DNA of 64,000 nucleotides, taken from positions 731,530-795,529 of the forward strand of contig CAJINV010000021.1 in NCBI GenBank assembly GCA_905178155.1, written 5' to 3'. This stretch comes from Amoebophrya sp. A120 (taxonomy: Eukaryota; Protista; Dinoflagellata). Below are positions 15,656 to 64,000 of the stretch, one piece after another. Under the pieces are notes generated by a model, which did not search any database, was not told the origin of the DNA, and worked only from the letters and a program-made list of their open reading frames with translations. A program made the position numbers and the translations under genes. How positions within the stretch are numbered: position 1 is the stretch's first letter; the number at the start of each line of letters is the position of its first letter.

Positions 15656-16114
15656 GGCAGTAGGTCCCAGAATGCCTAGAGATCTGGAGTCTCAGAGCCT
15701 GTGATGTGTGGAATGATGTCTATGATGAACCTTGATTGATGAATCTTCACAGGATGCAACGCAGCCAGAGGCTTTCGCCCTGTCTGCTGAGAGATTGAAG
15801 TGCTTGAACGTGTTAGAGACCTCTCGAAGGTAGAAGCTTTGGCCACTCAGTGTGGCAGGTGTGTTCAAAGTCCAACATCTTCATTGATTTATCAACACAG
15901 TAAATACATAGAAATGAAGAGCGGCATCAATAGTCGTTTCGAGTCTCGAATTTGCTCGTGCTCTGCTTGATGATGAAGATGATGATGATCGAGGGTAAAT
16001 TAAAATTATAACATACAGAGTAGGCGTCGCATCAAGTTTTTTGCGTTGTTGTTTCAGATTTAGACACTACTGACTTGAAACTCTGTCTTGTTGTATCACC
16101 TGTTGTTCACCTTC

Positions 16115-18848: not shown

Positions 18849-19405
18849 CTAAAAGTCATTTTCTCGGAATTCTCTGCAGCACCCCATGACGACGTGGACT
18901 AGAACCACGTAGTAGAAGAGCAGCGCGGCCCAGCCGACTAAATGTATTTCTAGGTATTCCTCAATTTGGAACACCCAGTACACCATGCCCCAGTAGTACA
19001 GCGTGTTGCTATACCGGACCGTATACGCAAAAGACCGAAGCATGTCGTCGTAAAGTTTGTCCTTGATCGCTTCCCCCTTGGCCTCGTTCTGCCGTCGGCG
19101 GCGCTGGTACTGTATGGAGTAGAACGCGATGAGGGAGACGTAGGCGAGAAGCAGCATCAGCCCGATGTTCCAGCTATCGTTGTAGAGGGACAGCTATCCT
19201 GTGCAAAAGTATCGCACTCGTAGTAATCGCAGTTATGCATTACAAATCTCCATCCCAAGGCAAAACAGCATGACAAATTCCATTTGTCACGCTGAGCTAA
19301 TTTGTATTGCAATTGCTACTAGTACGATACTTTTGCAGTTCATAACAGCGCGTGCAAGAAAATCTTCAAAAAACCGAAGACGACGCCGACGAGGAAAATC
19401 AGCAT
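18849..19405 (-). CDS. Small multi-pass membrane protein (~133 aa), 2 exons
   Basis: MLIFLVGVVFGFLKIFLHALS joins LYNDSWNIGLMLLLAYVSL... after introner removal. Several hydrophobic stretches. Confidence 0.75.
19195..19344. mobile_element. Introner, family C (150 bp), TSD ACAGC
   Basis: TIRs tatcctgtgcaaaagtatcg / cgatacttttgcagttcata. Perfect TSD; differs at 9 of 150 positions from the reverse complement of 21342-21491. Confidence 0.95.
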
Positions 19406-19771: not shown

Positions 19772-21199
19772 CTGAACGGGAGAAATAGGTTTTTTGGATT
19801 TCTAACATACGACAAACCATATTCATCATCATCATCATCATCATAACATCATCATCATGCTCGCCAGGAATTAGGTGGAGGAGGTGTCCGTCTTCGTCTA
19901 CGCAAAACAAGAAGTGCTACAGCGCAACAGAATGCTGCCTAATTAGTGGTCAGCATAAGTAGACTCATACCCAATCGGCCGGCATGTTTGCTTCATCAAA
20001 AACCAGTTGGTAAAATTTTCGTGCGGTGATGCCGGCGAGGTAGATCACGAAAAGCGAAAGGACCAAATAGTCCACGCCTTTCCGCCGAATTAAGGCGCCC
20101 ATGACTTTTTTGTACTTGCGCAGAAACTTCTGCTTGTCCAACACACTCCCGCGGCGCGCTGTCGTGGCAGGAGCCCCTGCCGCCCGAGTTTTTTACCTTT
20201 TGTCTCAACACTCAAAGGCTCCTGCAGAGGTGCGCCACACAAATGGAGATCGACGGGTCTTCGCTGGAAGAGCTCTTACCGCAAGAGCAGCACGATCGTA
20301 AGACCGGCGCGGTTGTGCTGCCCTCTCATCTTCCACCATCGCGGCCGGCCCCGCTACATTTTTCAGGAATAAAGGTTGAGCAGATAAAAGGTTGAATTAT
20401 CGGTCGTGCATGAAAACAAGTAAGAAGTAAACCTTCGTATAAATGTGGAGATCTTCTGCTGTTGACCGCAAGAATTGCAAGCGCGATCACATCATCAATG
20501 ACGATGATCCAAAAAAAGCAACGGTTTTACGACAGTTCAGTTCTTGCACGACCGACAGAAGATGAACGACTTTCCGCGACCATGAAGACGTGGAGAAGGA
20601 ATGCCGTTGCCAGGACGACTCCACACTGTGAGGCCGCGTGAAAACAATAACAAACCGCAGGCCATATGCTGGCATCGTTTTATCTTTGTCCATGATGATG
20701 TACACCTACATTTGCAACTGGAGATTTCAAAAATGTACAAGGTAATCACCTGCAGGTGGACAAGGATTATTCCGTGAATTTCCATTTTTCGATTTGTGCT
20801 ATTGTATTACGACGTATCATACAAGAACAACTTAGACACGCTTCATCATTAATTAGCATGATATCCCGAAGACGGTAAAGTAATGGTGACTCCATTTTTT
20901 TCGTCCGATTTTCTTACTGGTACCGTTTACGGAAAGGTATGAGGACTGCCATATCTACATGTTTTCGGTGTTCGATGATGCTGTGTAGCGAGCCCAAAGA
21001 TAGATTATACATTGAGAATGAGATATGGCAACATTCGGATCCTGCAATAAATATTCATGTTATCATCGAGATTTGTTAGAAGTTCAATCTGAATTACAAC
21101 AAGTACCCGAGCAAGAACAAAGAAACGGCCAGTGTAGACTTTCTTAGTGTAGAAGACAGATATGGTGTTGATCATCTCTTTCGCTGCTGACCTGGTGCT

Positions 21200-22146
21200 C
21201 TACTGCTGCACCTCTTTTTTCCTCTTCCCGCCCTGGCTCCTCGGACTGGCCCCGCTCCGCGGACTGGCTCCGTAGGCGCCCACGGCGGAGGAGGCGTTGG
21301 AGCCGTGAAAACTCGACCCCGTGTTGTTCGCGGACGACGCGTATGAACTGCAAAAGTATCGTACTAGTAGTAATCGCAAGACAAATTAGCTCAGCACGAC
21401 AAATGGAATCTGTCATGCTGTTTTGCCTTGTGATGGAGATTTGTAATGCATGACTGCGATTACTACGAGTACGATACTTTTGCACAGGATAACGCGTTTC
21501 CCGCGGCCTGCGCCATCTGCATGGTGATAGCGCCAAGCTTATGCATTGCAGAAGTACCATACTCGTACGTATTCCATTTTCAATCGCAGACATGCATTAC
21601 AAATTCATTTTAAGCTTATTAATCCGCATTACAAATTTCGTTTCTCTTTCTGAGAAAATTTGCCATGCAATTTATACGTAGTACGATATTCTTGCAATGC
21701 ATAACGCTTTGCAAAATTCTCCGATTTCTCCGCTTCCTCTAGCTCTTGCAACTCCAGCACTTCCCGGTCCCGCTGGGCGAAGTTTCTCTCCGTCTCATCC
21801 ATGTAGTACTGCAGTTGGTCGTGGTACTCTCGCATCATATCCCACGAAAAAAGTGTTACAGTTACACATTTGTAGTCAATTCAGCAACACAAATTTCTCT
21901 GTATGAGAGAGAAAACTTGTAATGCAGAAATCCTACGGGAAAACACGTATGAAACGAGGCTCCTATGCATATCCGGCATGACAGAGCTTGTCTGTCTTGC
22001 TTGGTCTGCAACACTACCACAATGTGTAACTGTAACACTTTTTTCTTGCGATACATCATGACCGTGCGGTAGTAGAGGGAGATTGGGAAAAACAGCAGCA
22101 GGCACAGCAACCCGAACGCGAGAATCACATTGAACTGCGTAATCAT
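21200..22146 (-). CDS. Small protein with N-terminal TM and coiled coil; 4 exons separated only by introners
   Basis: MITQFNVILAFGLLCLLLFFPISLYYRTVMM/REYHDQLQ...ENFAK(R/L)/GAITMQMAQAAGNA/SSANNTGSS...KKEVQQ*. The ORF is open only after all three introners are removed. Confidence 0.8.
21342..21491. mobile_element. Introner, family C (150 bp), TSD ACGCG
   Basis: Perfect TSD; inverted near-copy of 19195-19344; frame restored. Confidence 0.95.
21540..21703. mobile_element. Introner, family C, diverged (164 bp), TSD AAGCT/ACGCT
   Basis: TIRs tatgcattgcagaagtac / gatattcttgcaatgcata; frame restored. Confidence 0.85.
21838..22053. mobile_element. Introner, family B (216 bp), TSD CATCA
   Basis: TIRs tatcccacgaaaaaagtgttacagttacacatt / aatgtgtaactgtaacacttttttcttgcgata. 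Perfect TSD. Confidence 0.95.
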
Positions 22147-22298: not shown

Positions 22299-23865
22299 TC
22301 ACAAGGTTGGTCTATCAAACTTTAAACTACGAATCGGACTTGGTTCACAAATGAATAGTACCGTGAAAGTGCACGACCAGGGGTCCTCATCGCAAAATTT
22401 CTCTCTGCCCTGCCCGTCAATCTCGGTCGTGATAAAATGGCAGCAGTTCGTGGTGGGCGGACACAATTCCCGAAACGGTTCGTCGTGCGGCTTCCCGTCG
22501 TCGTCAAATTTCAGGTGGAAATACGCCTGCCCGTGACCTTCCACCTGCAAACTATGCAACACAAATTTCCTCTCCTGCACATATACAAAATGCATCACAA
22601 ATTTCACCACCTTGGAAGAGCATGCACCTTGTCATGCTGATTAGGATAGAAAGAAAGTTTTGTCATGCAGAAACCGCATTTTTGGTACGTGTACGGGAGG
22701 TTTACTGTGGATACAACTCAAACAGACACTCCTCGCACTTGTGCCCCGGTTTGTACCCAATCGTGGTGCAGGTGGATTCCTTGCGCGGAAGAAGATTGCC
22801 CATAGCGGCGAAGTACACCATCATCAGAATCACGCCTGGTGGAGATTTTCATTTTGACGCGATGAAATATCGTCTTCATTGGAAGCGGCCATGCATGTTG
22901 CAAGTAGCGTGTCACTCATTCAACAAGGGAGAATCATGCAATATTTCTCATTCTCGAAGATTGAATTTCTCATCCAAAAAAAAATCGCAGTTTTAGTCAG
23001 CGTGGCAAACCAAATCTTCTTCTAACGAAGTAATCTATACCGGTGACGAAAATTCCCGTTGGTATGAGGAACCAGAAGCAGACGTTCTTTCGTGGATTTG
23101 TTGGCATTTTGTGCTTCTGCTTCCTCGTCTCTGTGTCTTCTGACCAGTCGGACTCACTCTCTTCGACCACGTGCAGTCTTGCGAGGAAATGGTGCCAACC
23201 GTGATGGTGGTGCCGACTGCTCTTCTTGGATGCCTGCCGCTGTTCGATCTGATGAAGATTTTTTTCCAAAGTTAAAGAAAGAACCCAGATTATATCACCT
23301 GCGCAGAATTTGAATTGAAGATTGATGGCGCTAATACGATGCCGCGAATCCCAAAGAAATAGAAACTCATGCAAAATCCAAAAGCAATATATTTCCATAC
23401 TCATACCAGTTCCCACGGCTTTGGCGGTCTTGGCGCGTAGACATATCGCACCTGTTCTCCTCGGTTGTAAAACTTCTTACTACTGCTTCGGGAAAAGGTC
23501 ACGCTCTCCTTCGAGGTTTTTTTCGACCTTGGCGCCGAAGAGATCGCTTTCGAACCGTGGAAAGACTTGGCCTTGGACCCCTCCGCAGTCCGCGCACCAC
23601 CATGGTGATCACCTCCGGCGGTTGGTCCTCCGTAGTACAGCTCCGGAATAGATTTACCCGCGACCGTCCTGTCATGCGACTGGACTCCCTCGGGGGACAC
23701 AATGTTCTTGAAGAGTTTCACCGAGCCACGAATGTTGTTCGGGTTGACCTGTTGTTTGCTGCCGGAGGAGGGCGAGGTGACCTGGTTTGTTCGGGTGCTG
23801 GGCGACTTCGGCTTTTTGTCGTTGGGCGTTGTGGCCCGGTCGTTCAGAAGCGTTAGCGGAGGCAT
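22299..23865 (-). CDS. Hypothetical membrane protein with Cys-rich C-terminal part, ~4 exons
   Basis: ORF 23401-23865 splices by GT-AG to IEQRQ...FWFLIPTGIFVT, then by GT-AG to GVILMMVYF...CEECLF, then across the 22553-22713 element to LQVEGHG...CPPTTNCCHF. Confidence 0.65.
22553..22713. mobile_element. Degenerate introner (161 bp), TSD CAAAC/CAACT
   Basis: Both ends keep TAT-N7-AAA (tatgcaacacaaa; tttactgtggata) and internal ttgtcatgc motifs. Removing 166 nt restores the frame. Confidence 0.7.
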
Positions 23866-33166: not shown

Positions 33167-36100
33167 TCACGACACCATCCCGGCGTTCAACCTGGCTTGG
33201 TGCGCCGGCCAGAGATCCGTTAGCTTCAGCAACAGCCACTGCGTGTTGTCCGCCTTCTGGATCCACTGGTTGGACAGCTTCGACATCTGGCGCAACAGCG
33301 AGATGTAGGTCCGCATATGACTACCGGCATCGGGCAACCGGTCCTGCACGGCGGTCTCGACCGCGAGATTGTGGTAGCACACGACTAGTAGAGACGACAC
33401 TCCGGAGTTTGTCAGCTTGTTCAGAGCCTGCTGCAGGAAGTATTCTGCTTCGTGATGGTGGTTCTGCAGGAACAAAACCGATCCGTACCGCAGGCAGCAC
33501 TTCGCGAACCGATTGACGTGTTTCAGCTTCAAGTACCGCTGGCTTGCCTGCTGGAAGAAGGATTCCGCCTTGCTGGCCAGCTGCACGTCTTGGGGGGAAT
33601 AGTAGGCGACAGAGAGGGCCGTGTCGTAGAGGTAAGCCTCCAAAACCGCACGGTGCGCCGGGTGCAAATCCCTCAAAGCCGTCTGCATCGCCTCCAATGT
33701 CTGCAAACAGAGCCTCGCCGCGGCGGCGGAGTCGCTGTTCTTCAAACACAAACCGATGTAACCGACGAGGAGTTGGAAGATCGTCTCGATCAGCAGAGGC
33801 CGGTTTGCGACCAGCTGCGAGGGCTGGAAGACGTTCAGGTTGCCCGGGACGCACGTTTCCAACAACTTGATGCAAGCGGCGTAGTGACACTGCTTCTCGT
33901 GCTCGATGTACTGCTCGAGTTGCTTCGCGGGCAGCAACTGCAACACCTTCGAGCGGCACGCCGTGAACCGGTGGGCCTTGATCGGCAGCCACATGGGCTT
34001 CAGCTTTCCCTTGCACCAGTCCACCGTCACGTTCGGGGTCGGGACCTTTTCGTACGGCTTGTCCGCCGCGTCCTGCTTCAGTTTCGTCGCGACCGCCGCC
34101 TGCGCGGCCGGGTCGTCGCCCGCGGCTGCCATCTCCTCTTCGGCCTTCTTCTGCATGTAGTCCTCGCGAAACAGGTATTCGTCGGGTCGTTCTCGTTATC
34201 CCACGAAAAAACCGTTTCACTGTGATGATTTCGCAGGAAGAGGAACCGCATCACAAGTTTGTTACACATGACACAGAAAATTTGCCGCGCGCGTTTCCCA
34301 AGGGAAAATACGCTTAAAAATCCAACGGCTTGCAGGGAGGTGTAGCAAGGCAAATAGTTAAGTTCTGTGTTCCATTGTCTGCATCACAAGTTCACAGTGG
34401 AACAGTTTTTTCTTGCGATAGTCGCCTCGGCGAGGTTCCCGTGGAGAAGGGAATCACCGCCGGCTCGATGTCTTTAAACTGCGAGTCGTCGCCGTTTATC
34501 AAATGCAAATGTGTGGTCTGGGTCTGGAAGATTGCAAGATTTGTCATGCTAGTCTGGCATGACTCTGCAGTCTGTATTGCGTGGCCACCAAGAGGCCCTC
34601 TTGCCTGTCATGCAAAAGCGCAGTCTCTCATGCGAAATACGCAGCACAGAAGCACGAAAAAACTTGTCATGCTTGGCGGTGCATTTTTACAGAGCACTAT
34701 ACTGTTCACGGACTTGCACCATCACAAGTTTATTTTTCCAGACCCAGACTTATTTGCAATGCATACCGTTTGTTTCTTCCAAGTACCTTGTCAGGTAGTC
34801 TCCGGAGAGCTGAATGGCGTTTGGATCCGGTGGTCTCTCCATCTGCTGCTCCTCCTCCTGCGACTTCGACTCCGGTCGTTCCGGCTCTAGCGCCGCTTCC
34901 GACGCCTGCCTCCTGGCTGTCGGCGACATGTCCTGGTCATCCGCATCAAGCTGCCCGCCGGCGCGCTGCGCGGCCGCGGACAGGCCGACGCCGGACTGGC
35001 GGGAGCCCGGGGCCTGGGAGGTGGATGTGGAACCCGCGGTGGGTTTTCTGTGGAACAGCTCCGTTTCGACCGGTTTGATCCGGCCCGGCGCACCAGTCGC
35101 GTCGCCGCCCGCGCCCGCGGCTTCGGACTTCGGGACGTAGGCCTTGGAGAACCCGATGGCGCGGCCGCGCTTGAGCTGCGCGGACACGGATTCGACCATG
35201 GGTTTCAAAGAGGCGTTCTTCTCCAATAAGGAAACGAAATTCCTCACCACCGTGTCGTATGCGAAGGACAGCGCCTTCCAGATCTTCGCCATCTCCCGTC
35301 GCCGGTACATGTTGTACACGTAGAGCGCGTATAAATCCGCGCACGCCCGGTGATCCGCGGTAATCCTCACCTGCGGCAAGTCCTGCAGCGTCTCGACCGG
35401 GATCGCGCCTTTTTCCCCCCTTTCCGGCATACCGACTTGTTCCTGCTTGGACAACGCGCCCGGCCGCTTCAGCTCCTTCTGCTTCTTCTCCGCCTCCAGG
35501 CCCTGGCCACCGAGGTACTGGGACACGACCGGCTGGTAGGTGGCAATCTTTTCGTCGAGGGTTTTGCCGGAGTCCTTCCTCTATGCATTGCAAAAGCATC
35601 GTCTTAGAAGTACAATTCGCATGCCAAACAATTTTTTAGGAAGAAAGTATGAAATTTCTCATGCGGAGTTGGGTAAGAAAGCAGATGTGTCATGCAGCAT
35701 CGCAATGACTACTAGTACGACACTTTTGATGTCAACTGCGTAGCTTCTTGTTCGCTTTCCTGGTCAAGGCCGTCAGCTCGTCTTCGTCCTCATCCGGCTC
35801 GTCGCCGAGCGCCCGCGGCCAGTCGATCTCCTTGCAGTACCCGCAGATAACTTTCACGCGGTGTGAGTACCGCGCGCGGAGCATAAAACCCTTGAAGTTC
35901 GCCTGCAGCTTGCAGACCAGCGCGAGAATAGCCGTTGGCGCGGCGTTGAGGATCTGCTGTGCCTTCTCCGGGTCGGTCTTCTCGTAGGACTGCGACATCA
36001 ACGCAAAATTGTGCGTGTTCAGTCCGTCGTCCGGGTGCTCTGGCTTCGGGATTGGGATCTGGCACTGCTGGATGTGTCGCACGTTGATCTCGTTGACCGC

Positions 36101-39100
36101 CTTGATCGCGTTGGCCTCGAACATGGGCTGCAGCCCGCGGAAGCACGCGAGGACCAATTGGGAGACGACGGTGTAACCCTGGAGGTGGGCATCCGTGCCC
36201 TCGAGCGCACCGAGGAGGAGAGAAATGTGCTTGGAAATCGAGCGGACCTGAGGAGGAGTTTGGGATCATGTCTCTGTATGGCAAAAATCACAATGTAATG
36301 TTGTCAGATTTTTTTATTTTTTCAATCTAGAAATGGCCGTAAAAAACAGTCGCGCTGCCGCAAAACCCAACTATCTTCTACCTCCGCATCTTCCGTCCAG
36401 GAAGACCCCGTGAAGCTGTCCAGTGCCTGTCTGTTGGCATCTACCCCCGTTACCGCGGCAGCCGCCTTGTTCTTGTCCGCACCGACTTTCCTGACTTTCT
36501 TTGCCTTTTCCTTGCGCTTCATGAAGTGGTCCATGTGTTCCTCCGCATCCCGGTTGGACTCCATCAGCATTTCGGAGGCAAATCGCAAAGCCAGCACCTC
36601 CTCCAAAAAGTCCTGCAGGTTCGCCGCCTTCACGCTGTTCGCGGAAGCCGTCGCGGGCTGCACTTTATCCCTCGCCGGGTCGTTCACCGCGAAGCCGAAC
36701 TTCTCGCCGACGCACCGGTATTCGAGCGTCTCCAACACGTCCCACTTCGGTCGCGACTTGATTCCGCGGTACCGGTTTTCTCGGGTGGTGAACTGATTTA
36801 GCGTCTCAATCCACAACCTGGACAACCAGAACGACACACACGTGAACATGGACTCGTTGCTGCTCATAAGGAGCACCGGCGTCGCTTTCGCAGGCTTCAC
36901 CGTTCTGGCGCCCGCGTAGGCGAACAGGGACTTCCAGATCATCACGACCGACATCAGCGCCTTTCTCCACGGAGAGAGGTTCTTGGTATTCAGCGTAGTG
37001 ACGTCCTGGTTGATCTTGGTGCAAATAATCTTTGCGGCAGCGGCCATGTGCTCCTGCACATCGGCCGGGAGCTCCTGCGGCTTGGGTAATTTCAGGCGGT
37101 GGAACCACGGGGCTGGTCGCTTGTCATCCGCCCGCGAAAGCAGACCGCCTGTTGATTTGGGTGAATTGGAAAATTGAATGCAGTATGTCAGATTGTGTTT
37201 GTCTTTGAATTGAAATCTTTATCTTAGCCTAAGATAAAGATTTCACTCTGTAGTTCCAATTACACGTGCAAATCATACTTACATAAAGTTGGAAGTACCT
37301 AAGAACGCCGAGGCCATGAAATAGGTCGCCCGCAAGTTGTTCTTCTGGTGTGGTTGGACCAGTCGCAGACCGACGGACTTCGGAATCCACGGAATCGACG
37401 TGCGGAACTGCTTGGTTTCCCAGTTGCTGAGAAAGTCCTCGTCGATCAGCTTCGACTCTGCCACCGTCGGGGCCTGCGGCCTTTTCCCCACCCGCAACAC
37501 GTGCTTGATCTGCGACCCGCGACGCTTCAGCGGGTGGATCTTCATGTGACTGGTGCTGGGCGGCATGGTCTTCTCCAAAGAGCGCTTCGCGTTTTCGGTC
37601 AGCGTCATGATCGCGGTCTTCGTGAAGCCCGACGGCATCTGGTCGCTGTCCCCGGTGCCGACCGCGAGCTTGCCCGCCAGCATCTCCTGCTCCCGCATCC
37701 CGCGCTTCCCGCGCGCGATTGCGAACGTGAGCGGCTCGGAGAAGCACAGCCGGACCGGCTGGATCGTGCCCTTCATGTTCTCGCGGTTGTCCTTCTTCTT
37801 CGCGCGCGCGTGCTTCGACTGCCCGTGGACCGCAACCATGCGGCGGTAGTCGATGTTCCTTTCTCGGTGCTTGTGGAGTTGGACTCTGGACTTTGCGACC
37901 AGCGCTGCTTTCCGCGCGAGAAATTCCGACTCCGTCATTCTCCCTGCCTTCTCGCACAGTGCGTGGGACTCCTGCTTGAATTTCGCCGCAAGCCGTCGGC
38001 CTTCCTTGTTGAAGACCACTAAGATCAGCAACCGCCGCACGTTATGCATTGCAAAAGTATCGTACTGGTACTAGTAGTAATCCCAATCGTCCATGACAAA
38101 TCTCGTTGGTTCTTGTTAAGCTTAAGCCACATCCGCATTACAAATTAATGCTGATGAAAAAAGCGCAATTTCTACTAGTACGATACGTTATTTGCTCAGG
38201 ATACACGTTCTTCTGAATCGTGATGGCCGCGTGGTTCATCTTGCGAAACCACTTGCGCATCACCGCCCCGCGCCACAACCGCTGGATCTTCGCGACCGCG
38301 AGGGTAAAGGAATGATTCTTTCGCTTTCGCTGCACCGCGCGCACGTTGTGCTGGACCAATTCGACCGCATTCAGCATGTTGTAGGTCTTCATCGAGGTCT
38401 TCACCCCCCGCCAGTACCTCTGGAGAAGTAAAGCCGGGCCCAACTGCTTCCTCCGCTGCGTCGTCGCCTTGTAGTACCGGTATTTGCTTTGGAGTTGCAC
38501 ACTAGCCCGGTGGTAGTACGTCCTCACCATCAACCCGCGGCACAGCATGTGGAATAACACAACGGCTAAGACGAACGGGCAGTGGTCGTGCTTCGCCTTG
38601 TAAGCCAGGTCGAACAACTTGTCAATCACCGCGATGAACCGGCTCTGCCGGACGTTCCCCTCGCCGCCGTCTTGCTTTTCCTTCTCGGCGTCCTTCTTCC
38701 TGCGGATGTACCGAATAATCCCTTCCTGGTCCCGCATCAGATACGACAGCTGCTGCACGATACGCAGACACGCCGGGCGGTTGAAGAAACTGAGTCTCCC
38801 GCCCTTGTACTCCGGGCCCATCACGACCGAGGCGTGGCGGGACAGCAGCGGGTTCTGCTTCGGGTCCGCGAGTTTCGACGGCTTGCCGTCCTTGTCGGCT
38901 TCCAAACCGGGCAAGGTCGTGATGAATTTCCCAACCTGCGTTGCCAGACTGTACACCGTCCCGTGCGCTTTCGGCCATTCAGACGGGTACCGCAGACCCA
39001 TCTCTTTCGACAAAACGTCCATGATCTGCGACCCGACGGTGGCGTCCACGCCCTGGAACGCGAAGTGATCGTCGGTGGACAAGCTGGACAAATCCAGCGC

Positions 39101-42100
39101 CTGCCTCGTGGTGATCAAAATCTGGGCGGTTAAGTACACATGTCGCAAATGCGGGGGCATGTTATCAAGTGTAAAAATGTCTGGGTCTGGCAGATTCTGA
39201 GACTTGTCATGCACGTTTTGCATGAGCCATGATGTCTGTGATACATGCCGTAGCATCACAGATTTTTCGAGGGGTTCTTGATGCCTATGTCGCATGACAA
39301 ATGCCCTATCCGCGTAGCAAGAATTACATTCCCTTTGCTACTCATGCAATACAATTTTTTTTGGAATCCAAATGCAGCATCACAAGTTGCGACCGTCCAG
39401 ACCCAGACATTTTTACATTTCATACATGTTCGCGAGAAACAAGACGTAGAAGTTTTCCGGCGTGGCCGTCATCATCCGGTCGTGGTGGTGGTTGATGTGG
39501 CAGTAGTCCTGCGACATCGATTCCAACGGCTCACCGGGTCGCGGCGGGACCGGCATGTCCGGCTGCTTCCCCAACGTGATCTCTTCGAAGGGGTAGGCCG
39601 GGCACTTCAAAAACGACGTGGACAAGTGCGCCAGGTTGTAGCAGCACCACTTCACCGTGTTGGAGAACACGTCGTTGTCGATGTGGGACAATAAATGGTG
39701 CACAATCGTGACCAGCATGTGCGTCCCCAGGTCGTTCTCCGACTCGTCTAACGTTAAGTCCTTCGCGCTGCAGCGCTTCGACCGGGTCCCGATCTCCTCG
39801 TTGGCAAGCTTCCCGGTGACCCGGGTCAAGCCTAAAGTTCTCTGCAACGACGCCTTGATCTGCTCCAGCACCTCCTGGATTTCCGGGGGCAAGTGCCGGA
39901 ACCAGGGATGGACGAAATACCGCACGTTGCTTGCCCCGAGCAGGGCGGACACGAGGACGGTCGAGATTCTCTTGTCCGCTTCCGCCTTGTCCCGCTTCTC
40001 GTTGACGAAGTACTCGTAACCCTTGTGCTTGCGGAAGTTCCGCTGGATCATGGTGGCGGCGAGGTCGGACAACTTTTCCTTCATCACCTGCTTGCGGACG
40101 CCGTAGATCTCGTCCAACCGACTGTACAAATGCATCTTCATGGCCAGCTGGGCCTGCCACCGTCGCCAGTGCGACTGGATCTTCGTGGCCATCTTCTGCT
40201 TGTGGTTCATCAGTTTCCGGCCGAGGTACCCGCGCATCCGCGCCTGCGCCAAGGTCGTGTGGTGCACGAGGTTTTTGTGGCGCATGCGGGTCAGGGTGCC
40301 GCGGGACATGGCCTGCAGCCGCGCGGCGGCCTGGTTCATCACCCGGACCGGCTTCTTCCCGTAGAGGTACCTGGGGTGGGGGTTTAGGATTTTGGCATCA
40401 CAGCGCTCTGTGGTCGCATGGTGCGCAAGAGATAGTCATAGTTCGTAGGGAGAGGTATCCTTGAATTTATCAAGTGCATGTAGTTCAAACACAAAACATT
40501 CAAAAAAACATGGTAATTTAATTACATTCTAAACGCCCTCTGCAGCACGTCCGCGGCTTTGTGAAATCTCTTCACATGCACTCTGCAGACGCTCCCCCGG
40601 AACGCGGACTGCAGCTTCGTCGCAGCCAAGTTTCGGTCCTGGATCGAGATGCGCACGATCTTTCCGCGGAACAAGGCCTGGATTTGCGACGCCCGCTTGT
40701 GCATCAGTTCCTTCTCCTGGTGCGCTTTGAACTTGCGGTACCAGCCGCGAAGAATGATCGCGTTCGAACCGTGTTTACCGAAGATTTTCTGGCAATCCCA
40801 CATGCGCTTGTACTTCTGGATCACGATCACCGCGGCGGTTTCCCGGCGGACCTGCGCGCGGGCGAGCGCACCGCGGCAGAACTTCTGGATAGACAAAAGC
40901 GCTTTCTGCTCCTTGGCCTTCTGGATAATGTGCCCCGGGTCGTCGCATACGATTTCTTCCTGATAGAGAATATTTCGTGAAGATGAAAATCAAATCAAGT
41001 TTCATTTTGCTGTTGAGGGTCTGCTGCATGGTCATGAAAAATTATCATTAGTTGCCACTAAGCAGAAACAAGTAGACGAGACATACAAGCAAAAATTATC
41101 TCTCTACTTTTACCTTGAAATTGTAGTAGTATCCTTCACTGGTCGAGCTCAACCGCGGCGGGTTCAACCGCTGCAGGAACCAGTGCTTCGCGGGTGTAAT
41201 CGCTAACGCCTGCTCAAACGTGTCCTTCGTGAAGTACAGCCACTTGTCGCCGCCCTCGTAACCCGTTTTGTCGGACTGGTTGTCCCGGGCAAGAAACCTT
41301 CGCCGGTTCGTGAACCCGACATTCAGCATCGGCACGTAGTCCTTCATGATTTGCACCTCCGAGGCGGTCAAGTACCGGCAGCCCGGGAGCGGCTGCACCC
41401 AGTGCTTGCGGCCGCGCTTCGACTTGTGCAACTTCTGGAAGCACATGATGCAGTAGTAGTCCGTGCACTGCTGGCACCAGACGATGCTGTCCGGAATCCC
41501 GCACTCGCTGCACTTTATCTTCACGAACCCTCGGTAGTCCCACAGAAAGTCGTTCTGGATGCAGTCGGACAGGTGTGAGCGTGCACAACTCCCCCCCCTC
41601 CTCATTTAGATGGCAACACAAGCTCGGGCATAGATGCAGCTTTTGCATGACAAAATGACGACCGATTCTAGTGCGGCTTGGAATTCCGAAATTTGTCATG
41701 CAAGCAGTACGAAGAGGCCACGGATGGATTTAGTATTTCGCACGACAAATGAGAAGGAGGTGGGGGAGTTGTGCACTTTCATAACAAGTGCTCGCGGAAC
41801 TGGTCCACCATGGGGTGGATCGGCTGAATGTGCTCGGTTTCCAAATTGATGTACCACCGAACATCGTTCTTCACAATCAAGTCCCAGTGCGGCGGAAGCG
41901 GGTAGCGGAGCGCAAAGTAACAGTACCTGGAGGATTATTTTGAGATCATGTAAAAATTCTTATTCAATGCTAGTGGCAGAAAAAGAAAAGAACTTGTGAT
42001 CCAGCAGCGCTCTCTCGTTTAATTTTCAGGTTGCTTCACTAAATTAGGATTAGCTCATAAAACCGTCCTGCATAAACTTGTTACCCCCGATGCTGTCATG

Positions 42101-55499: not shown

Positions 55500-56590
55500 G
55501 AAAAGGGTGGGATCGAGATCCTTCTAGTGGTAATTGTTAGTGCAACTGCTGATCTTCCCTGCTCACGAGCACAGCGCACACATCGGCTCTACGGTTGCAG
55601 GACGACCGATCTTTGGCAGGGTGTTACGACTGATGTCATCCGCTATGCTGCATCCTAGCAACAGAGTGTCGAGTCTTCTTGCGCTCGTGGCTCCTCGTTG
55701 AGGCTCGTCGTCATCAAACGGATCACGTTGTGCAATAGTAACAGAGTGATCCCAGGAAACAGAGACCGAAATTACCGAATGGCTTCATCAGTATGACCAG
55801 TGAATCATAGGTCCTGCTCTGGAAAGCGAATACTCGGACAGGAAACAAAGACGAGATCATTTTGACTTCTACTTGTCCCGAAAGCAGCGTGAAAGAATAC
55901 TGGACCAGAGAATCGTGCGGGACTTGTCTTTTTTTTTCTTTTTTTTGATGAAACAATACTTGGTGTACAGTTTGAGAATAACAATAAATTCTTTTCAGTT
56001 CCTGATCCTGTTCGTGATCCCCGCTTGTACTTTCTCCTCGTCGAGCCTTTGTTTCGTCGATTTCCCGCTGTTGTTCGTATGTCATCCCGTCACGTTGTCC
56101 ATGTATCGTGCATTTACTAGTATACCACCTGCTTCACGATTGTTGGTACATGTGCATTTTGATTTTGGCTGGGACGAGTAGACGAGAAAAAGGCGGGGAA
56201 ACAGATCTTCGCGGAGCAGCAGCTCCCGAGGAGTTTCTTTCGTCTGAGCCCTGAAAAAACTCGACCTACTGCTACTACCGAAACTTGTTGTGTATCAGCT
56301 ACATTAACATTCATTCGTAAATAAACTCACCAGTCAAGAAAAAGCTAGATTAAATCAGGAAAGAGTTGTTAGATTTTGGTTTCATTGAGATGCTACATTT
56401 TGAGAAGTTTAAGTTCTTCATTTTCTTGCGCTAATCGATATACTGTGTGCTGCTCTCATCTTCATCAACACTACAGCATTTATCGATTGTGGCACTTCTA
56501 AAGACAGTCATTCTGAAAACCACTAAGAGACCATACAGTTTGAACATTTACTACTACTTTCAAAATTTTCGTTTCCGCCACGATTCATTT

Positions 56591-59500
56591 TCACCCCGCT
56601 CCGGGCCCTAAGCCTGCGCCGAAGGCGGCTAATTTTCTGCCCTCCTTTATCCTGAGTAAAAACGTACCCACGCCAGAGTTGTAATGCAGATTTGCAAAGA
56701 CAGGAAGACTTGTAATGCGCATCCGCATGAGAGCCATTCCCAGTCGTATTTTGGAATTTGTGATGCTGTGAACAGGATGAGCAGACGAATCTGTGATGCG
56801 GCTGCACTTGCTAACCCGCACTACACTGCAGAGTGCAACTTGTCATGCGTGACTCACAAAACTCCTAGCTTTGTGTTGCAAAATCCCCATCCTGACTCTG
56901 GTGTGGGTACGTTTTTACTCAGGATATCCTTACTGACCGCCATCTGCCGCACCACTTCCTTCATTTCCGGCGTCCATTCGATCTCCCTCTCGACCTCCGC
57001 GTCCTATGCAATGCAAAAGCATCGTACTAGTATAAATCGCATGACAAATTCCCTCAGCATGAAAAATCGAATTTGTAATGCGGATTTCGGTTAAGATGGA
57101 GATTTGTAATGCATGACTGCGATTACTACGAGTGCGATACTTTTGCACAGGATACGTCCTTTTCGATTGCGATGTCGATGAACCGTTCGTGCGGCCTCCG
57201 CATAGACTCGCCGGAGGAGAAGTTGTAGTAGTACTTGACGCCTCGCAAGTCGTAGAACGCGTGCCACTCCTCGCCGAGCGTGGTCTGTATGGGTGCGCGC
57301 TTGGAAAACCCCTCCTGCGCCTCGTACGCCGGATTCACTTCTCCCAAGGCCCACACACGGGTGACCCCGCCCGACGGCGCGTTCAGATTCGGTGCAGCAG
57401 CGCCTGCTCCCGGTGCGGCGGCCCCGCCCGCGGCTCCTCCTGCCGCGGCGCCACCCGCTTCCGGCGCACCCGCACCGGCGTTCTGAGGTGGCGCGGGTGC
57501 CGGTTTCCTCTTCGCCGTGTAGTCGATTCGCAGTGGCTTCAGGTCCAGAAACTTCGGCAGGGTCTTCACGTGCTTGCGGGCGTAGCACTCGTGGCAGTAG
57601 TTGCCGAAGGTGTAGGTGCACTGCAGTTTGGCCGGGAACGCGCGGCAGAGACAGCAGGGAATCAAGTGGTTTGGCTCGTGCTTGTGCCGGTTACCCTTGC
57701 TGTGCAGCCGCTCGAAGCAGTTCTCGCAGAAGCAGTCTTCGCAGTCCGGGCAGTAGCAGGTCGCAATCACCTGGCACTCGATGCAGTACAGCTGTGCGTG
57801 CGCGCTCGGATTGACCAACTCCCCCGGATCGTCCTCCAGGTCCATGTTCTTCGCAATATTGGCCTTCGCGCGCTCGTTCTCCACGATTTCCAGACACCAC
57901 TTGACCTCCTGCGCGTCGATCTCCTCTTCCAGCCGGTACTGCTGCGAAAACGCCTTCAAAAAAGTCTTCAGCGTTCGGACCATGAAGGGTTCCTTCGGCA
58001 GGTCGATTTTCAGCATCTCCGCCATCTGCTGCACGTAAAGCGGGGAAATCAACGGCTGTTGCAGCGACACGTCGTGCTGACTCTCCGCCTCGTAGGTCCA
58101 CTATCCAAGAAAAAAACGTTGTTAGTGTAAATTTGTGATGCGGAACATGCAAGATGATTGCGTCTGTCATGCTTGGCATGCATTGTAGGGCCCACTAAAG
58201 GGCGTTTTCACGTACTATCTGCGCATGACAGGTTTTTGCTGTCATGCCAGACAGATTTGTAATGCTGTTCCTCCAAAAAAGTTACACCTACAATGTTTTT
58301 TTCTTGGATATCCACAGCATGCGGTTCAACCGCAGTTTGATATGCTCCTCCTGACTCGCCCTTCGGCAGTGGTCGAGCAGCTGCGCAAAGTAGTCGTAAA
58401 ACGGGTGCTTCCACGTGGTTTCCTGGGACTCGTTGTTCAGGTAACACACGATCGACCCGACACCCTTGTAACTTGTCCACGGGACCGGCAACTCTACTTC
58501 GGCGAAGGCCTCGATCACCCAGCTAAACTCGCGGTCCGCCTCCGGATCCGCATTCAAGTACGCAAACCACTCCTCAAGCACAGGCCTGAGCGATTGATTG
58601 TGATTGTGTGGTCTTGTAGTAGAAACTATCGTGCTCACTTCTTTCTCTTTCACGCAAATTTTTGAAAATGCAACACCATGATCTTGATCATGCATGCTTG
58701 CCCATGTATTGATGGCACGACGAAAAGGTGAGAGCACTTGTTTCATCGAAGTTTGAATTTGAAAGCAAAAGGGGAAATAATAAATAAAGGGTGAAGCAAA
58801 AAAATTTCTACCTTTGTCCCATGCACTTTAACATTGGCACGGTGGCTGCTTTTTCCAGGGCCTTCTGTGTGACCGGGTCTGCGATACCGAACAGGGACAG
58901 GGGATCCGCGTCGAGGTAATCCAGCGCCTCCTCGGACAATTCGCGATTGTCTTCCAGGGTCTGCTATGCATCCCAAATATGTCCGGGTCTGGAAAAATAT
59001 AACCTGTGTTGCGCGTCCGGGATCCCTGTAAAGCCTGTATTGCATGACCAACAAGAAAGCCGAAACCACTTTTGTCATGTTGGGAAACTAAGGGCAGGGC
59101 GTCCCTGTGTAAATAGCGTAAAACGGTAACTAACCGCCTACTCAGCAAACTCGAAACCACTTTTGTCATGCAAAAGCACAGTCTCTGTCTCTGATGCGCA
59201 CTACGCATGAAAAAGCGCCCTAGAAATTTGTCATGCTTGGCTGCACGACTCAGGAGTATGTATGCTCATCACAAGTTCTTTCCAGACCCAGGAGACATAT
59301 TTGCAATGCATATCTGCAAGGCCTCAATCCACAAGGAGTCCACATCATCCGTCCAGTCGAGGAGAATGTTTTCTGGGTGGACGTACGCGACCCTGAGGTA
59401 TGTTATTTATCGCAAGAAAAAACTGTTTCACTGTGAACCTGTGATGCAGAGAACGAAGCGCCAAAGTGTTTGTCTTGCTACACCTGCAACGCAACGGATT

Positions 59501-60715
59501 TTTAGGCGTGTTTTCCCTTGGAAAACGTGCATGACAAATTTTCTGTGTCATGTGTAGCAAACTTGTGATGCAGATCCTGCAAAACCATCACAGTGAAACA
59601 GTTTTTTCGTGGGATATTATTTCTTGCACTAACACTATTTATCGACGAGATCATCTCCATGTAGTTCATGCACGAGCACCAGAAGAGCTGACGTGCTCAC
59701 TGCCATACTGCGAAATAGACCTCGGTCCTCAAGCAGCTAGTAGCTGAATCTGAGCTAGGCTACATGGATCTACTTCTAGTACATCACATGTACTACGAGT
59801 ACGAGTCAGAACATTTGCATATATATTGTACCTGTATTCTGGCCCATTGTCACCCTCTTTGGTTTCGAAAAACACGCTGGTATCGTCCACCTCCACAGCG
59901 GCTTGAAAATTTGCGGGTATGTATCAAATGCAAATATGTCTGGGTCTGGAAATAAAGTGCAAGTTTGTCATGCTGGTCTGGCATGAGTCTGAAATCTGTG
60001 ATGCATGAGCAGGAAAAGCGCCCCTTGCCTGTCATGCAAAAATTTAGTTTGTCATGCGAAAAACGAAACACACAGCAGCGCAAAAACTTGTCATGCTGGG
60101 CTGCATCTTGTTGTGCGCCCACAATTCGTAGATTTGCATCACAAGTTTCCAGACCGAGACCCAGACATATTTGCATTTGATAGTATGACACCGGGCACGA
60201 GATCGTCCGGCACTTCCGGCACGGGCGGGTACTGGAACTTGTAAACATCCGGCACCACCGTTCGCACTTCCCCAGGCACATCGGTTTCCTCGGGGATGGT
60301 GACCATGTACCCGAAGGAAATGATATCATATGTAAGAACATCCCCACCCCATTGTCAAGTTGGAACAACTCAGCAACACAAATCCAGAAGTTTTGGGAGC
60401 CACGCGTGACAAGTTGCAGTCCGTAGCGTAGTGCATCTTAGCAAGGACAACCGCATCACAAATCCGTCTGCGTCTGCTTCTCCTGTTTACAGCATTACAA
60501 ATTCCAAAACCCGATTGGAAATGCCTCTCAACATGGAGACGCGCATTACAAGTCTTCCTGTAATCGCAAATCTGGATGACAACCATCATGGGGTGGGGAC
60601 GTTTTTACTCAGGATAAATGACCTTATGCCTCCTCGGCTGCTCCTTCACCCGCACAATGGGGATCTTCACCTCCGGCTCCGCCACCCGGCGGTGCCCCTC
60701 GTCGCCGCCCGACAT
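56591..60715 (-). CDS. CEP164-like WW + two B-box zinc fingers + WW protein; 7 introners plus GT-AG introns
   Basis: AYLNADPEAD..W....ELPVPW..YLN..QETTWKHP; CIEC..CPDCEDCFCENCFERLH..RHKH; EEWHAFYDLRGVKYYYNFSSGES. The frame is restored at each introner. The junction near 59630-59831 is not fully resolved. Confidence 0.85.
56648..56926. mobile_element. Introner, family D (279 bp), TSD TCCTT
   Basis: Near-perfect TIR tatcctgagtaaaaacgtacccac(g/a)ccagagt. Joins VSK to EGRKL. Confidence 0.95.
57005..57154. mobile_element. Introner, family C (150 bp), TSD CGTCC
   Basis: Right ~58 bp nearly identical to 21342-21491; perfect TSD. Joins IEKD to AEVER. Confidence 0.95.
58102..58310. mobile_element. 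Introner, family B-like (209 bp), TSD TCCAC
   Basis: TIRs tatccaagaaaaaaacgttgttagtgtaa / ttacacctacaatgtttttttcttggata. Joins RMLW to TYEAE. Confidence 0.93.
58965..59312. mobile_element. Introner, family A (348 bp), TSD TCTGC
   Basis: TIRs tatgcatcccaaatatgtccgggtctggaaa / tttccagacccaggagacatatttgcaatgcata. Internal duplicated cgaaaccacttttgtcatg. Confidence 0.92.
59408..59616. mobile_element. Introner, family B (209 bp), TSD TTATT
   Basis: TIRs tatcgcaagaaaaaactgtttcactgtga / tcacagtgaaacagttttttcgtgggata. Perfect TSD. Confidence 0.93.
59922..60182. mobile_element. Introner, family A (261 bp), TSD GTATG
   Basis: Perfect 26-bp TIR tatcaaatgcaaatatgtctgggtct. Joins PGVI to PANFQ. Confidence 0.95.
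60324..60616. mobile_element. Introner, family D (293 bp), TSD AATGA
   Basis: Inverted homologue of 56648-56926; perfect TSD. Joins HKVI to SFGYM. Confidence 0.92.
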
Positions 60716-61788
60716 GGTGGTCGAGGTGGTGTTTTGGGGCTGTACTAAACCACGTACAAGCTGAAGCTTATTTTACAGCTCCTCCGCGAGGATTGGTCGA
60801 TTGGACGAGGTCGTGTACTACACAGGTTGTGCAGAAGATGAACTGTCACACCGCGGCGAGCACACGTCACGATATTACCCCAGCTCCTCGCAGACGTCGC
60901 ATCCTCGTCATTTCATCAAACATACAAATCTTTAGCTCAAAAAACAGTCTGCTAAATCAGAGCCTGGTGGTTTTTTTTCAATTTCAATTTGGTTCGTTGA
61001 ACGACAGAAACAGTTGTTGTGCGTACTTACTGTGAGTGTAATAAATAAGAATGCTTTATTTTCGATGCACGAATTAGAACAAATTGAAATTGGCGGAGGA
61101 TGTTGGCGTGGGGTAAGGGAGGTACTCAATTGTCGCGGAGACGCAAACGCGATTAGAAACGAGATGGCGATGGGAGGGGGCAGGGGACAAATGACGATCT
61201 GGGTAGCGAGACAATCCTGCACTTTCGGTTAGAAACGAAGTGCGTTTAGCCCCATTGGTTCACTTTTTCTTTCGAGCTCTCCCACGGAATCAATGTCGAC
61301 ATCTCTCAACGAGCAATTCGGAATTCGATTCTCTTACTCTTTCTCAGTAGTCGTTGCATATGATGACAAACAATAATTCATGCGATGGTTTATCACTCAA
61401 CGAAATCAGATCCACCCCTACAACATAATACAAAGCACGACCCAACAAGAACTTCTATCTCTCTGCCCCCATATCATGCCCGATTGTTCTTTTGTCAATG
61501 AACACATCCTGACTTTATTTCGACAAAGTAGAACCACTTCCCGAAAACGAATGGTCAGTGAAAATTTAAGGTTGCCAGCTATGAGGTAGAAAGCGTCGCA
61601 TCGGTCCAATTCGTCCAAATAGATTTTTACAGGATCTTCTGGGGGGCGATGAAGACAATGGGTAATCGCTATCGCAATCATACTGTAGGGTTTCATATGC
61701 CGAGTTTCAAACAAGTAGCAAAAAGAGCACACCGGCCTCAACGATGGGAAAAACGATGCTCCTTGTAATTTGTGCATGTGCTCTCGTC

Positions 61789-64000
61789 TCATGTAGGCTC
61801 GAATTTTCGTATCTTCTTGTACCGATCGATATCGGACGGGAACATGGTGGGGGTACCACCAGACGAACTAGTGTAAAATAAAACATTCAGTTGCGATTAC
61901 GAATAAGCAGTCAATGAGCAGGAAGTTCAGAGACCACGATCGTGTAAGACGAAAAAGAAAGTTATCCAGCAGCAGGTTCCCGGCTAGTACTAGTCTAGTA
62001 GTATCTCCACTATCAATTTCTAAATCTGATTATCCTACAAACCTCCCGCCGAAGAACCCCGCTTCTCTCGGCTTGCAAGGGCTTCGTTTTACCAGACACG
62101 GATCGTTCGGCAGCACCACCGTGTGGTTGATCTTGGCCGGCACGCTTTCGTAGTAGCCGTGATTTAAGCTGTATGCATTGCAAATCTGTCTGGGTCTGGA
62201 AGATGTCATGCTGTTTTTGCATGACGCAGAAGGTCTGGCATGGAAGCCCTAGCATCACAGATTTCGACAAGGTTCTGCAATGCCTAATCCGCATGACATA
62301 TCCCCCACTTTGGTGACAAGAAGTGGGCATCTTTTGCTGCCTATGCATGAGAGATTTCTGTGTGTTATGAAATGCGCATCGCAACTTCACATCCTTCCAG
62401 ACCCAGACATTTTTGCAGTTGATAAGCTGCGGCGCTCGACGAAGCTCTTCTTGTCCGCAGCAAACTCCCCCCGGTTGCAGCGTTGCGGGTCGGAGGGGAA
62501 CATGTCGATGCCCGACGGGTCGCTGCCGGTGGGCAGCCGGACCATCCGGGACCGCGCCGGCCCGAAAAACCCGTCGTAGTCTACCGGCTCGGGCTTGCTG
62601 TTCTTCATTGCCCTACCTCTTCTGTCGGTTTCCAAATACGCTCGATACTCGGAATCGCCACCGGCCGCGACGAGCATGTTAGTTACCGAAATGGCATCCT
62701 TCGTCGCTGTCGGACTCCGGTCCACGGCGTGAGGGGAATTTACCCTGCGGCTGGCGTCCTGTCTTTGAAGCTCTTCTGCGAATTGTTGTTGTGCAATCTT
62801 GGCGTTGTGCAGCTGTTTTTGCTTCAATGGGTGGTCGGAGCTCTGTTCTATCAGTTGCTGCAAAGACATATCCCGGTTATCGAGGAAAACGTTTCTGGCG
62901 GTATTTCCGTCTGGTTGTTGACCTCCTGCTTGGTAGTTATTTGCTTGTCCCGCTGCGGCTGCCGCTAATGCTGCTGATTGCTGCACTTCCTGCGCAGTCC
63001 TCGGACTTCGCTGCTCTACCCCGGGGGAGTGACGCACCGCGCTCCTGGGCGATTGAATTCCGTTGTAATGCCTCTTCCTCGCCTCGAATAAGTTTTCCCT
63101 CTGGTCGGCACCGAAATTCGCCTCATCAAAATTTCGTTCTTGTCCGCGCTTTTCTACGTGGTTTTTGTAGTCGCGCAGAACCCCAGAAGGGCTGGTGACT
63201 TCGGCGCTCCGCGTGTACACATCAAACTCCTTTGGCGGCAAAACGTCGACGTCTTTGAGCAGCGTTGGGGCTTGGGGGACTACAGCGCGCCGGCCGTAAG
63301 GAGATGAAGTAGGCGAGATCAAATCCTTCACCAGGTTACTTTCCTTCTCCATCGGATTGATCCCGACCCGTTTCCCCCTACCGAGTGGAAAGTCCCCACC
63401 GGCACTCGGGAGTGCTTTGCTAAACTCCGGATTACCGCTTCCTCCGTAATATCGGCTTTCCTGCTCTTCGTCGTACTTCATGGAATACTGATCGCCGTAC
63501 TTCGCCCGCGGCACTAACGCCCGCGTCGGGTTCCCGGGCATCAGCGCCGGGTGCGCGCGCTTGCGGTCCAGCCGCGCGTGCAAAACCGGACTGTGGGCCG
63601 CGGGGCCGAACCCGGGGAAAACCCCGTTCGCCCGCTGTGGGGAGGAATCGCGGTGCAGCTGCTCCTCCTCGTGCGCCAGTTTCCCCCTGTAATCGAGCAT
63701 CACCCCGGTTCGGTCGGGGGAAAAGCTCTGCTGTGAAGGTCTCTGCTGATGTTGTTCGTTCCCAGTACCTGGCGCACCTCCTAAGATCGTCACCTCCGTC
63801 TCGTTCGGCTTCCCCGCTACCCGCGCGCCGTGGGGAACATACCGTACGAGGAACGGGTCCCCGGAATCGCAGTGATTGTACTTCAACAGACTTCGGTCGG
63901 GGGAAAAGTTGCCGACGATCTCTTTTTCCGGGCTCATCGCGATCTCTTCCTCCACCTTGTAGCAATTTGGCAGGTATTTGTAATTGTTCACGCCCGTCAT
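61789..64000 (-). CDS. Hypothetical low-complexity protein, probably 5'-truncated by the window edge
   Basis: ORF 62387-64000 continues across the introner (VERRS to LNHGYYE...), then via a probable GT-AG intron to SSGGTPTMFPSDIDRYKKIRKFEPT*. Confidence 0.7.
62172..62424. mobile_element. Introner, family A (253 bp), TSD AGCTG
   Basis: TIRs tatgcattgcaaatctgtctgggtctggaag / cttccagacccagacatttttgcagttgata. Perfect TSD. Confidence 0.94.

Follow-up and report, generated by a model that had tools for sequence, protein, structure and literature searches.

The window, that is, the whole 64,000-nucleotide stretch of DNA analysed here, comes from Amoebophrya sp. A120: the RNA-polymerase subunit that it encodes is 100% identical to an A120 protein and 66% identical to that of A25. 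Statements on published work below refer to the accessible parts of the papers cited. The introners (intron-forming elements) of A120 have been described as 29,850 elements of 1,954 families that make up 17% of the assembly, with short direct repeats and with inverted repeats consisting of TAT, seven variable bases and at least three A (Farhat et al. 2021, PMC7789003); the same authors rejected a general mobilisation by transposase and did not detect U1 in A120. An initial annotation of the window had picked out a 9-bp motif, YTGTVATGC, as repeated inside introners of several families. This length is too short, as a matrix built on 88 interior sites defines a 13-bp box, RAAYYTGTVATGC, in which T is disfavoured at V, with a weak D after it. 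Seven of the elements lie in one minus-strand transcript and are listed here with their group, defined by the terminal inverted repeat (TIR), their flanking 5-bp duplication and their boxes.

55966–61108, minus strand: host transcript with seven elements (56648 to 60616) and two canonical introns.
56648–56926: introner of group B, 279 bp; duplication TCCTT, TIR 29/30; six boxes, all on the plus strand, with 9-mers starting at 56679, 56710, 56758, 56791, 56840 and 56871 and forming two 31-bp pairs.
57005–57154: introner of group D, 150 bp; duplication CGTCC; boxes at 57039 and 57057 (minus) and at 57073 and 57104 (plus).
58102–58310: introner of group C, 209 bp; duplication TCCAC; boxes at 58133 and 58164 (plus), 58223 and 58246 (minus) and 58257 (plus), with an additional weaker exact 9-mer at 58239 (plus).
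58965–59312: introner of group A, 348 bp; duplication TCTGC; nested insertion of about 90 bp; boxes at 59004, 59035, 59163 and 59228 (plus) and at 59266 (minus).
59408–59616: introner-type element of group C, 209 bp, nested within the canonical GT-AG intron 59392–59830 (minus strand); duplication TTATT; boxes at 59439 and 59470 (plus), 59529 (minus) and 59563 (plus).
59922–60182: introner of group A, 261 bp; duplication GTATG; boxes at 59965, 59996, 60029, 60049 and 60088 (plus) and at 60136 (minus).
60324–60616: introner of group B, 293 bp, in the orientation opposite to that of 56648; duplication AATGA; five boxes, all on the minus strand, at 60373, 60404, 60453, 60492 and 60543.

In silico excision from this transcript leaves 2,908 nt, the length of a contig in the set X6, with an open frame of 648 codons that encodes a B-box domain (Pfam match to PF22586).

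The 9-mer is strongly concentrated in such elements. The window contains 64 matches where 3.51 would be expected and where the largest count in 100 shuffles is 10; 57 of the 64 fall within 23 elements with TAT..ATA ends (150–348 bp each, 5,076 bp in all); dinucleotide shuffles of these elements contain 0.82 matches on average and 3 at most (200 shuffles). The long open reading frames (ORFs; 26,244 bp) hold one match and the other non-element DNA (32,680 bp) six; the seven matches outside elements are near chance (3.2 expected, p=0.047). The initial annotation was therefore right that the motif is common to differing introner families and rare in exons, and the enrichment over composition-matched sequence that it proposed to look for is found. 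Its counts of six in 59922–60182, five in 56648–56926 and five in 58102–58310 are exact if Y is allowed at the first position (the literal ttgt- forms alone number 4, 4 and 2, respectively), and the elements at 19195, 21838, 22553 and 41574, where it saw further copies, hold 2, 2, 3 and 2. Of the 23 elements, 18 were found by TIR and duplication searches, two came from the terminal pattern and three were delimited by eye around leftover motif matches, a circularity that is removed by a motif-blind search of other loci.

These loci were obtained by scanning metagenome contigs for two boxes 31 bp apart, which gave at least 141 loci with 12 of 64 parts covered. One assembly (contigs JACKZZ01) supplied 110 of them; it has the families of the window, with best matches to window elements of 65–95%, and its loci are an enlarged sample rather than an independent replication. 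The 31 loci from other assemblies yielded no credible element: the 12 inspected by eye were tandem repeats or coding coincidences, and one of the 31, L065, gave two low-complexity calls. A search with a tip matrix recovered 371 non-overlapping elements of 95–420 bp (353 in the loci and 18 in the window), 366 of which contain at least one box. The motif-blind search, which used TAT..ATA, TIR and duplication only and covered about 110 loci, found a box in 345 of 349 elements; among the 240 lacking the scan pattern the figure is 236. It also added groups E, J, K, M and N, giving 12 TIR-distinct groups (one single-member), outside which fall 11 of 413 elements. Box density in the metagenome loci is 17.5 per kb inside called elements and 1.88 per kb outside; uncalled elements account for at least part of the difference between the latter value and the 0.22 per kb found outside elements in the window. 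Two elements, L015 2649–2759 and L021 10293–10472, have TAT-type tips, a TIR and a duplication and carry no box at score 10; they possibly represent a box-independent family.

The duplication is exactly 5 bp in 301 of the 371 elements and longer in none, and a terminus-blind search returned TAT..ATA ends with duplications of 5 bp in 249 cases, 4 bp in four and 8 bp in one. No base preference is seen at 300 target sites. Among 742 ends found with the tip matrix TAT is present at 98–99%, with A as the second base at 99%; groups J, K, M and E keep TAT and do not keep the A tract at positions 11–13. Dispersed copies are up to 96% identical at different sites and have no coding capacity. [quoted passage not shown]

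Within the elements the boxes obey a spacing rule, a property that the initial annotation had suggested examining. A same-strand pair 31 or 32 bp apart occurs in 18 of the 23 window elements, which was matched by 6 of 5,000 random placements, and the spacers of these pairs differ in sequence even within family A. A pair at 31–33 bp recurs in 170 of the 250 elements of the tip-matrix set that do not match the scan pattern; in the motif-blind set it accounts for 245 of 518 same-strand gaps of up to 60 bp and is the commonest such gap in 10 of 12 groups, the exceptions being K (1 of 9 copies) and M (0 of 1). Measured from the tip, the first inward-reading box stands at 31–33 bp (81 ends), 38–44 bp (201 ends) or 54 bp (10 ends), with 16 ends at 34–37 bp. 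These distances are steps of about one helical turn with few independent families behind them, and outward-reading first boxes, at 33–50 bp, have no clean 10.5-bp phase. A general 10.5-bp phasing, considered for all gaps, has no support outside the 31–33-bp pair and the first-box distances. The two ends of an element are asymmetric, and the tips of the main groups themselves resemble the box, with 58 of 742 scoring at least 8 against 0.02% of shuffles.

Positions 4–10 of the two tips pair no more often than by chance (621 against 629 in group A, 174 against 174 in B and 484 against 556 in D), the left and right tips each keeping their own sequence, such that the outermost part of the 'TIR' is without pairing constraint. 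At positions 14–24 the arms have minor bases in common more often than expected (group A, 48 where 31 are expected; group D, 38 where 20 are), a pattern compatible with pairing or copying; subfamily structure could be another source. The boxes are also conserved: in nine of nine alignments core identity is 0.76–0.95, compared with 0.57–0.75 for the other interior sequence, although the group A alignment is poor. CpG mutability was ruled out as the cause of core conservation by setting CpG columns aside.

The elements are removed precisely from RNA. X11 RNA reads skip 56643–56926 (284 reads), 57000–57154 (joint 56999 to 57155, 343 reads) and 58097–58310 (joint 58096 to 58311, 261 reads), each skip comprising the element and one 5-bp duplication. 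The 2,908-nt X6 contig has these three joints again together with 58959 to 59313, 59916 to 60183 and 60317 to 60616, and it also lacks the two canonical introns. Another X6 contig joins 62164 to 62423 across the element at 62172, X6 contig 17 joins 10227 to 10458 across that at 10234, and X3 contig 10 joins 13608 to 13885, so that the two-box element at 13615 is likewise removed. X1 contigs continue into or through elements; X6, X3 and X5 were taken as RNA by guess, no data set with this stretch being registered as RNA, with the loss of canonical introns in support, and X10 and X12 have no coverage of the 55966–61108 gene. The joints do not place the cut within the 5-bp duplication. GY..AG ends are possible in only 10 of 204 elements, and 257 of the 371 elements lie within a coding frame that opens once the element and one duplication are cut. 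Two details of the X11 reads may be recorded separately: they stop at 58543 in letters which we take to be a template-switch adapter, and 484 of 526 carry an extra A at position 56542 (an allele, a strain difference or an assembly error).

Removal is indifferent to the strand of the boxes. The same-family elements 56648 (six boxes, plus) and 60324 (five, minus) both leave one mRNA, and in the 257 coding-frame elements the RNA strand bears 546 boxes and 498 complements (p=0.15), without the enrichment on the transcribed strand expected of a strand-specific RNA splicing element; the strand bias that the initial annotation proposed to check is thus not seen. Elements with boxes on one strand only divide 27 to 26, and element orientations 137:113 (p=0.15). 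In every predicted fold examined it is the TIR that closes the structure, and in those of 57005, 58102 and 59408 opposite boxes pair. Since elements leave one mRNA in both orientations and the boxes lack strand bias, a DNA-binding site is favoured over a splicing signal in RNA; neither box–box pairing nor an RNA signal tied to one strand is likely. The motif had been proposed as a common site for a trans-acting factor, namely a transposase, a splicing factor or a chromatin protein. The shared site is supported by the enrichment, the conservation, the spacing held over diverged spacers and the interiors, most of which cannot be aligned between groups outside the boxes; among the three factors a strand-specific splicing factor is disfavoured, a transposase is the most likely, and a chromatin or accessory host protein remains a candidate.

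On this basis the motif observation is real and the box is likely to be functional. We propose that a single transposition machine, acting in trans, probably serves at least 11 TIR-distinct families, with the box as its subterminal DNA site. The tips, the duplication and a Ginger-like A120 family (see below) lead us to predict that this machine is an integrase-like DDE transposase. Protein subunits would load onto the boxes along one face of the helix, 31–33 bp being three turns, and would thereby bring the catalytic site to the TAT tip, which is invariant. Within the TIR, the family-specific positions 14–30 would mainly form an RNA stem that joins the exon ends; because this part would serve splicing in this way, there could be many TIR 'families' without family-specific transposases. 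Copies that lose boxes would cease to multiply and yet remain spliced. In 15 old exonic copies both tips are kept in 14, and the boxes number 3.67 as opposed to 4.87 in the closest relative, a loss of about a quarter; the 7 non-exonic copies found are too few for a comparison of exonic with non-exonic decay.

Several observations weigh against this proposal. Gaps of 18, 20, 37, 39, 49 and 52–54 bp fit a 10.5-bp phase poorly, group K has the pair in one of nine copies, the tips of groups J, K, M and E are unlike the box-like tip pattern, and group C has a skewed orientation (25:11, p=0.029, uncorrected for 7 tests). TIR positions 14–28 are conserved within families as well as the cores are (0.79–0.92), as enzymes specific to each family would lead one to expect. 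The search for autonomous elements, which extended over the window plus about 0.6 Mb of locus sequence and thus well below 1% of a genome, did not turn up the enzyme itself. Among 86 ORFs (80 of the 218 locus ORFs of at least 200 aa and 6 window ORFs) and 24 read-through frames taken from four long elements, Pfam revealed neither transposase nor integrase, the frames giving one weak, unrelated match; a homolog search with one of the six frames of the L028 insert returned nothing, which is weak evidence. The group A TIR pattern had no match in viral contigs, the pair pattern gave one GC-rich chance match, and the tip-plus-pair pattern had none in prokaryote genomes. Farhat et al. (PMC7789003) likewise found no transposase in A120.

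Sequence variation between copies, with variants divided into those shared by several copies and singletons and with CpG columns set aside, is equivocal in this respect. When copies are clustered at 78%, shared variants are depleted in cores relative to spacers (0.18 and 0.47 per column) more strongly than singletons are (1.93% in cores and 3.07% in spacers), a contrast between the two classes that speaks for the proposal (63 and 117 vs 695 and 742, p=8e-4). At 86% clustering the contrast disappears (p=0.77) and at 92% it is borderline (0 and 11 vs 23 and 55, p=0.06), and singletons occur in cores at 0.53–0.66 of the spacer rate, so that selection after insertion is possible and counts against our proposal. 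The sample is sparse and the singletons include changes in unsampled parent copies, for which reason these data neither show nor exclude such selection.

All of the DNA-level evidence fits equally well with a shared host architectural protein that binds the box and aids transposition while family-specific transposases read the TIRs. IHF provides a precedent for such a role in CRISPR-associated transposons (CAST; PMC10201428), and this arrangement would suit both the family-specific TIR positions 14–28, conserved like the boxes, and the orientation of the boxes relative to the tip, which varies between ends and groups. We nevertheless regard it as unlikely: it requires a dozen or more transposases, none of which was found, and it sits poorly with the box-like tips of the main groups and with the excess of shared minor bases in the TIR arms (48 vs 31 in A, 38 vs 20 in D).

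Two other possibilities tie the box to removal of the intron at the level of DNA. In the first, which we consider distinctly unlikely, one DNA-binding protein (a domesticated or active transposase) would read the box array, both spreading the element and marking it for exact removal from the transcript; tens of thousands of non-GT-AG introns would then be defined at the DNA level in a cell apparently without U1. In the second, which is more doubtful still, the box would be a DNA mark, maintained after insertion by selection on the host gene, through which a host protein either singles out the element for removal during transcription without U1 or sets local chromatin. Such a mark would be strand-blind, it would agree with the depletion of singletons in cores, and another intron-defining signal is needed given that 10 of 204 elements are GY..AG-capable and that U1 was undetected in A120 (PMC7789003). 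It would not readily explain why 7 of the 189 non-seed elements in coding frames survive with 0–1 box (their splicing being judged from the frame; the length of 5 of the 7 would shift the frame if retained), why the two-box element at 13615 is spliced, or why exon-called copies, with a core-to-spacer singleton ratio of 0.59, do not fall below the uncalled ones, with 0.47.

Common ancestry was assessed by aligning elements between groups and comparing the result with shuffles in which boxes and tips were fixed and the remainder was shuffled. Of the member pairs between groups 66 of 71 have z<3 and five exceed it, against z of 5–43 for pairs within groups (n=7); seven of 33 consensus pairs reach z of 3–5.7, and groups C and D share a three-box module. 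The initial description of the families as otherwise unrelated is therefore correct for the interiors, which mostly cannot be aligned between groups, and incorrect for the TAT..ATA tips, the 5-bp duplication and some faint modules, which are common property. To judge from these comparisons the families probably form one superfamily with a remote common ancestor, an origin that would leave the survival of boxes and spacing, with loss of the spacers, unexplained. It is accordingly very unlikely that the box is a functionless relic of common ancestry and internal duplication, the full explanation by descent that the initial annotation had held up as the alternative. The common tips and duplication length, the pairs that beat box-preserving shuffles (7/33 and 5/71) and the C–D module speak for it; the cores stand above the adjacent bases in every alignment, the spacer length is held at 31–33 bp with the sequence scrambled even in family A, and 66 of 71 pairs stay below the threshold that all within-group pairs exceed. 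Finally, that the box acts in RNA, as a splicing-factor site or as pairing repeats that fold the intron, is extremely improbable despite the exact splicing and the opposite boxes paired in the predicted folds of 57005, 58102 and 59408, given the absence of strand bias, the one-strand boxes of group B, which cannot pair with each other, the splicing of that group with either box or complement on the RNA, and the closure of each predicted fold by the TIR itself.

In organism, TAT-start repeats with an A tract, direct repeats and non-canonical splice ends, our elements agree with the introners of Farhat et al. (PMC7789003), whose accessible text describes terminal repeats only; here the groups are held together by one box and a spacing rule, with a duplication of strictly 5 bp. 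Element lengths match those of A120 families reported by Gozashti et al. 2025 (PMC12130899; 149, 209, 260, 278, 305 and 321 bp). Family 38 of that study, 808 bp long and annotated as Ginger-like, is alike, in a comparison by description only, in its 5-bp duplication, TA/TA termini and TIR; it contains fragments similar to long terminal repeat (LTR) element sequence, with no complete transposase reported in the accessible material. IS3EU and GingerRoot have TA..TA termini, as here, and usually 6-bp duplications, with GingerRoot TIRs of 100–150 bp (PMC10045372, PMC6839031). Ginger ends are TG..CA (PMC6839031), and the Ginger2 duplication is 4–5 bp according to PMC10045372 and 6 bp according to PMC6839031. 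Our elements share with IS3EU/GingerRoot and Ginger2 the lack of target preference and a duplication within the 4–6-bp integrase range; they differ from IS3EU/GingerRoot in having 5 bp rather than 6 bp, and from Ginger1/Ginger2, with which a 4–5-bp duplication is shared, in lacking TG..CA termini. Filing them under IS3EU/GingerRoot or Ginger was dropped because of these mismatches. For none of IS3EU, GingerRoot and Ginger2 do the accessible parts of the two papers mention a repeated internal box.

Closer parallels to the box array are found elsewhere. CAST ends carry repeated sites for the transposase TnsB, with activity sensitive to their spacing (PMC10201428), and the Emigrant MITE has subterminal motifs bound by Lemi1 (PMC1636448). 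As in Tn7/CAST and Emigrant, several copies of one site stand in asymmetric ends at tight spacing to each other and to the tip. Here, in contrast, the boxes are common to TIR-distinct families, occur in both orientations and fill most of 110–320-bp elements; the element doubles as a precisely removed intron, and binding is predicted. Subterminal binding sites are ordinary transposon biology, and what is new is their use across TIR-distinct intron-forming families. The initial remark that the motif seemed undescribed holds for the literature searched: we did not find the box there, the motif strings occur neither in the text of the Farhat supplement nor in 12 of the 14 supplement files of Gozashti et al., and two reviews (PMC11282704, PMC11453091) mention terminal repeats only in their accessible parts; an earlier mention is possible in figures, subscription papers such as Roy et al. 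2023 or theses outside the search. A possible likeness of the box to Sox-Oct composite and RBFOX motifs was rejected as implausible or strand-inconsistent.

With a 13-bp box and its fixed spacing rule the A120 families become one system, and the way in which introners move can be tested directly. The box can act as bait for identifying the protein that would bind it, and TAT tips, a 5-bp duplication and a box at 31–33 or about 41 bp together provide a signature for the autonomous element. The distinction between box and TIR would separate moving and splicing into parts that can be mutated individually.

The other elements of the window are as follows.

10234–10458: introner of group C, 225 bp; right tip one base short; three boxes, one 31-bp pair.
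11396–11659: element of group A, 264 bp; four boxes.
13615–13885: introner of group A, 271 bp; duplication 4/5; two boxes only.
16889–17074: decayed element, 186 bp; duplication 3/5; no internal box at score 10; no splicing seen among the joints listed.
19195–19344: element of group D, 150 bp; four boxes.
21342–21491: element of group D, 150 bp; four boxes.
21540–21703: element of group D, 164 bp; three boxes, 32-bp pair.
21838–22053: element of group C, 216 bp; three boxes.
22553–22713: D-like element, 161 bp; three boxes; left tip scores 18 on the box matrix.
34197–34420: element of group C, 224 bp; two boxes.
34497–34765: element of group A, 269 bp; six boxes.
35582–35742: decayed element of group D, 161 bp; one 31-bp pair.
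38043–38203: element of group D, 161 bp; two boxes.
39163–39424: element of group A, 262 bp; five boxes.
41574–41783: element of group E, 210 bp; left tip TGT; four boxes, 32-bp pair.
62172–62424: introner of group A, 253 bp; duplication AGCTG; five boxes.

The 18 window elements for which this was tested all fall in genes called on the minus strand, in agreement with a single block of co-oriented genes. The neighbouring minus-strand genes 12560–14797 and 16115–18342, with similar MYND-like and RING-like parts, are interrupted by elements of different groups (13615 and 16889, respectively). Two repeats of the window lie apart from the elements described. The first, 15281–15800, has internal short repeats and neither box nor 5-bp duplication; a 97% similar copy occurs in an X5 contig, and its depth rises in X1. 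The second, at about 20398–20558, is an inverted repeat pair with a TAT start on the left, without box or clear duplication, and is possibly another element type or a decayed copy.

The long elements (457–1,209 bp) were considered as deletion derivatives with boxes near their ends only, an idea set aside on alignment, which shows that insertions are nested in otherwise short elements; those of 813 and 834 bp are of this kind. Nested insertions of 90–580 bp occur in L028 632–1465, L051 3862–4492, L069 5794–6297, L030 8804–9260 and window 58965–59312. Those tested gave no protein match, and several carry their own duplications of about 10–17 bp or simple-repeat tails in the manner of retroposons. 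The same insert piece, identical at 107 of 107 compared bases, is present in L030 (about 8865–9040) and L059 (6184–6998), in elements of groups B and K. L021 and L070 look like near-identical inverted duplicates, with the same DnaJ, SET and rhodanese matches and with one element that is 99.6% identical between them and has the same flanks.

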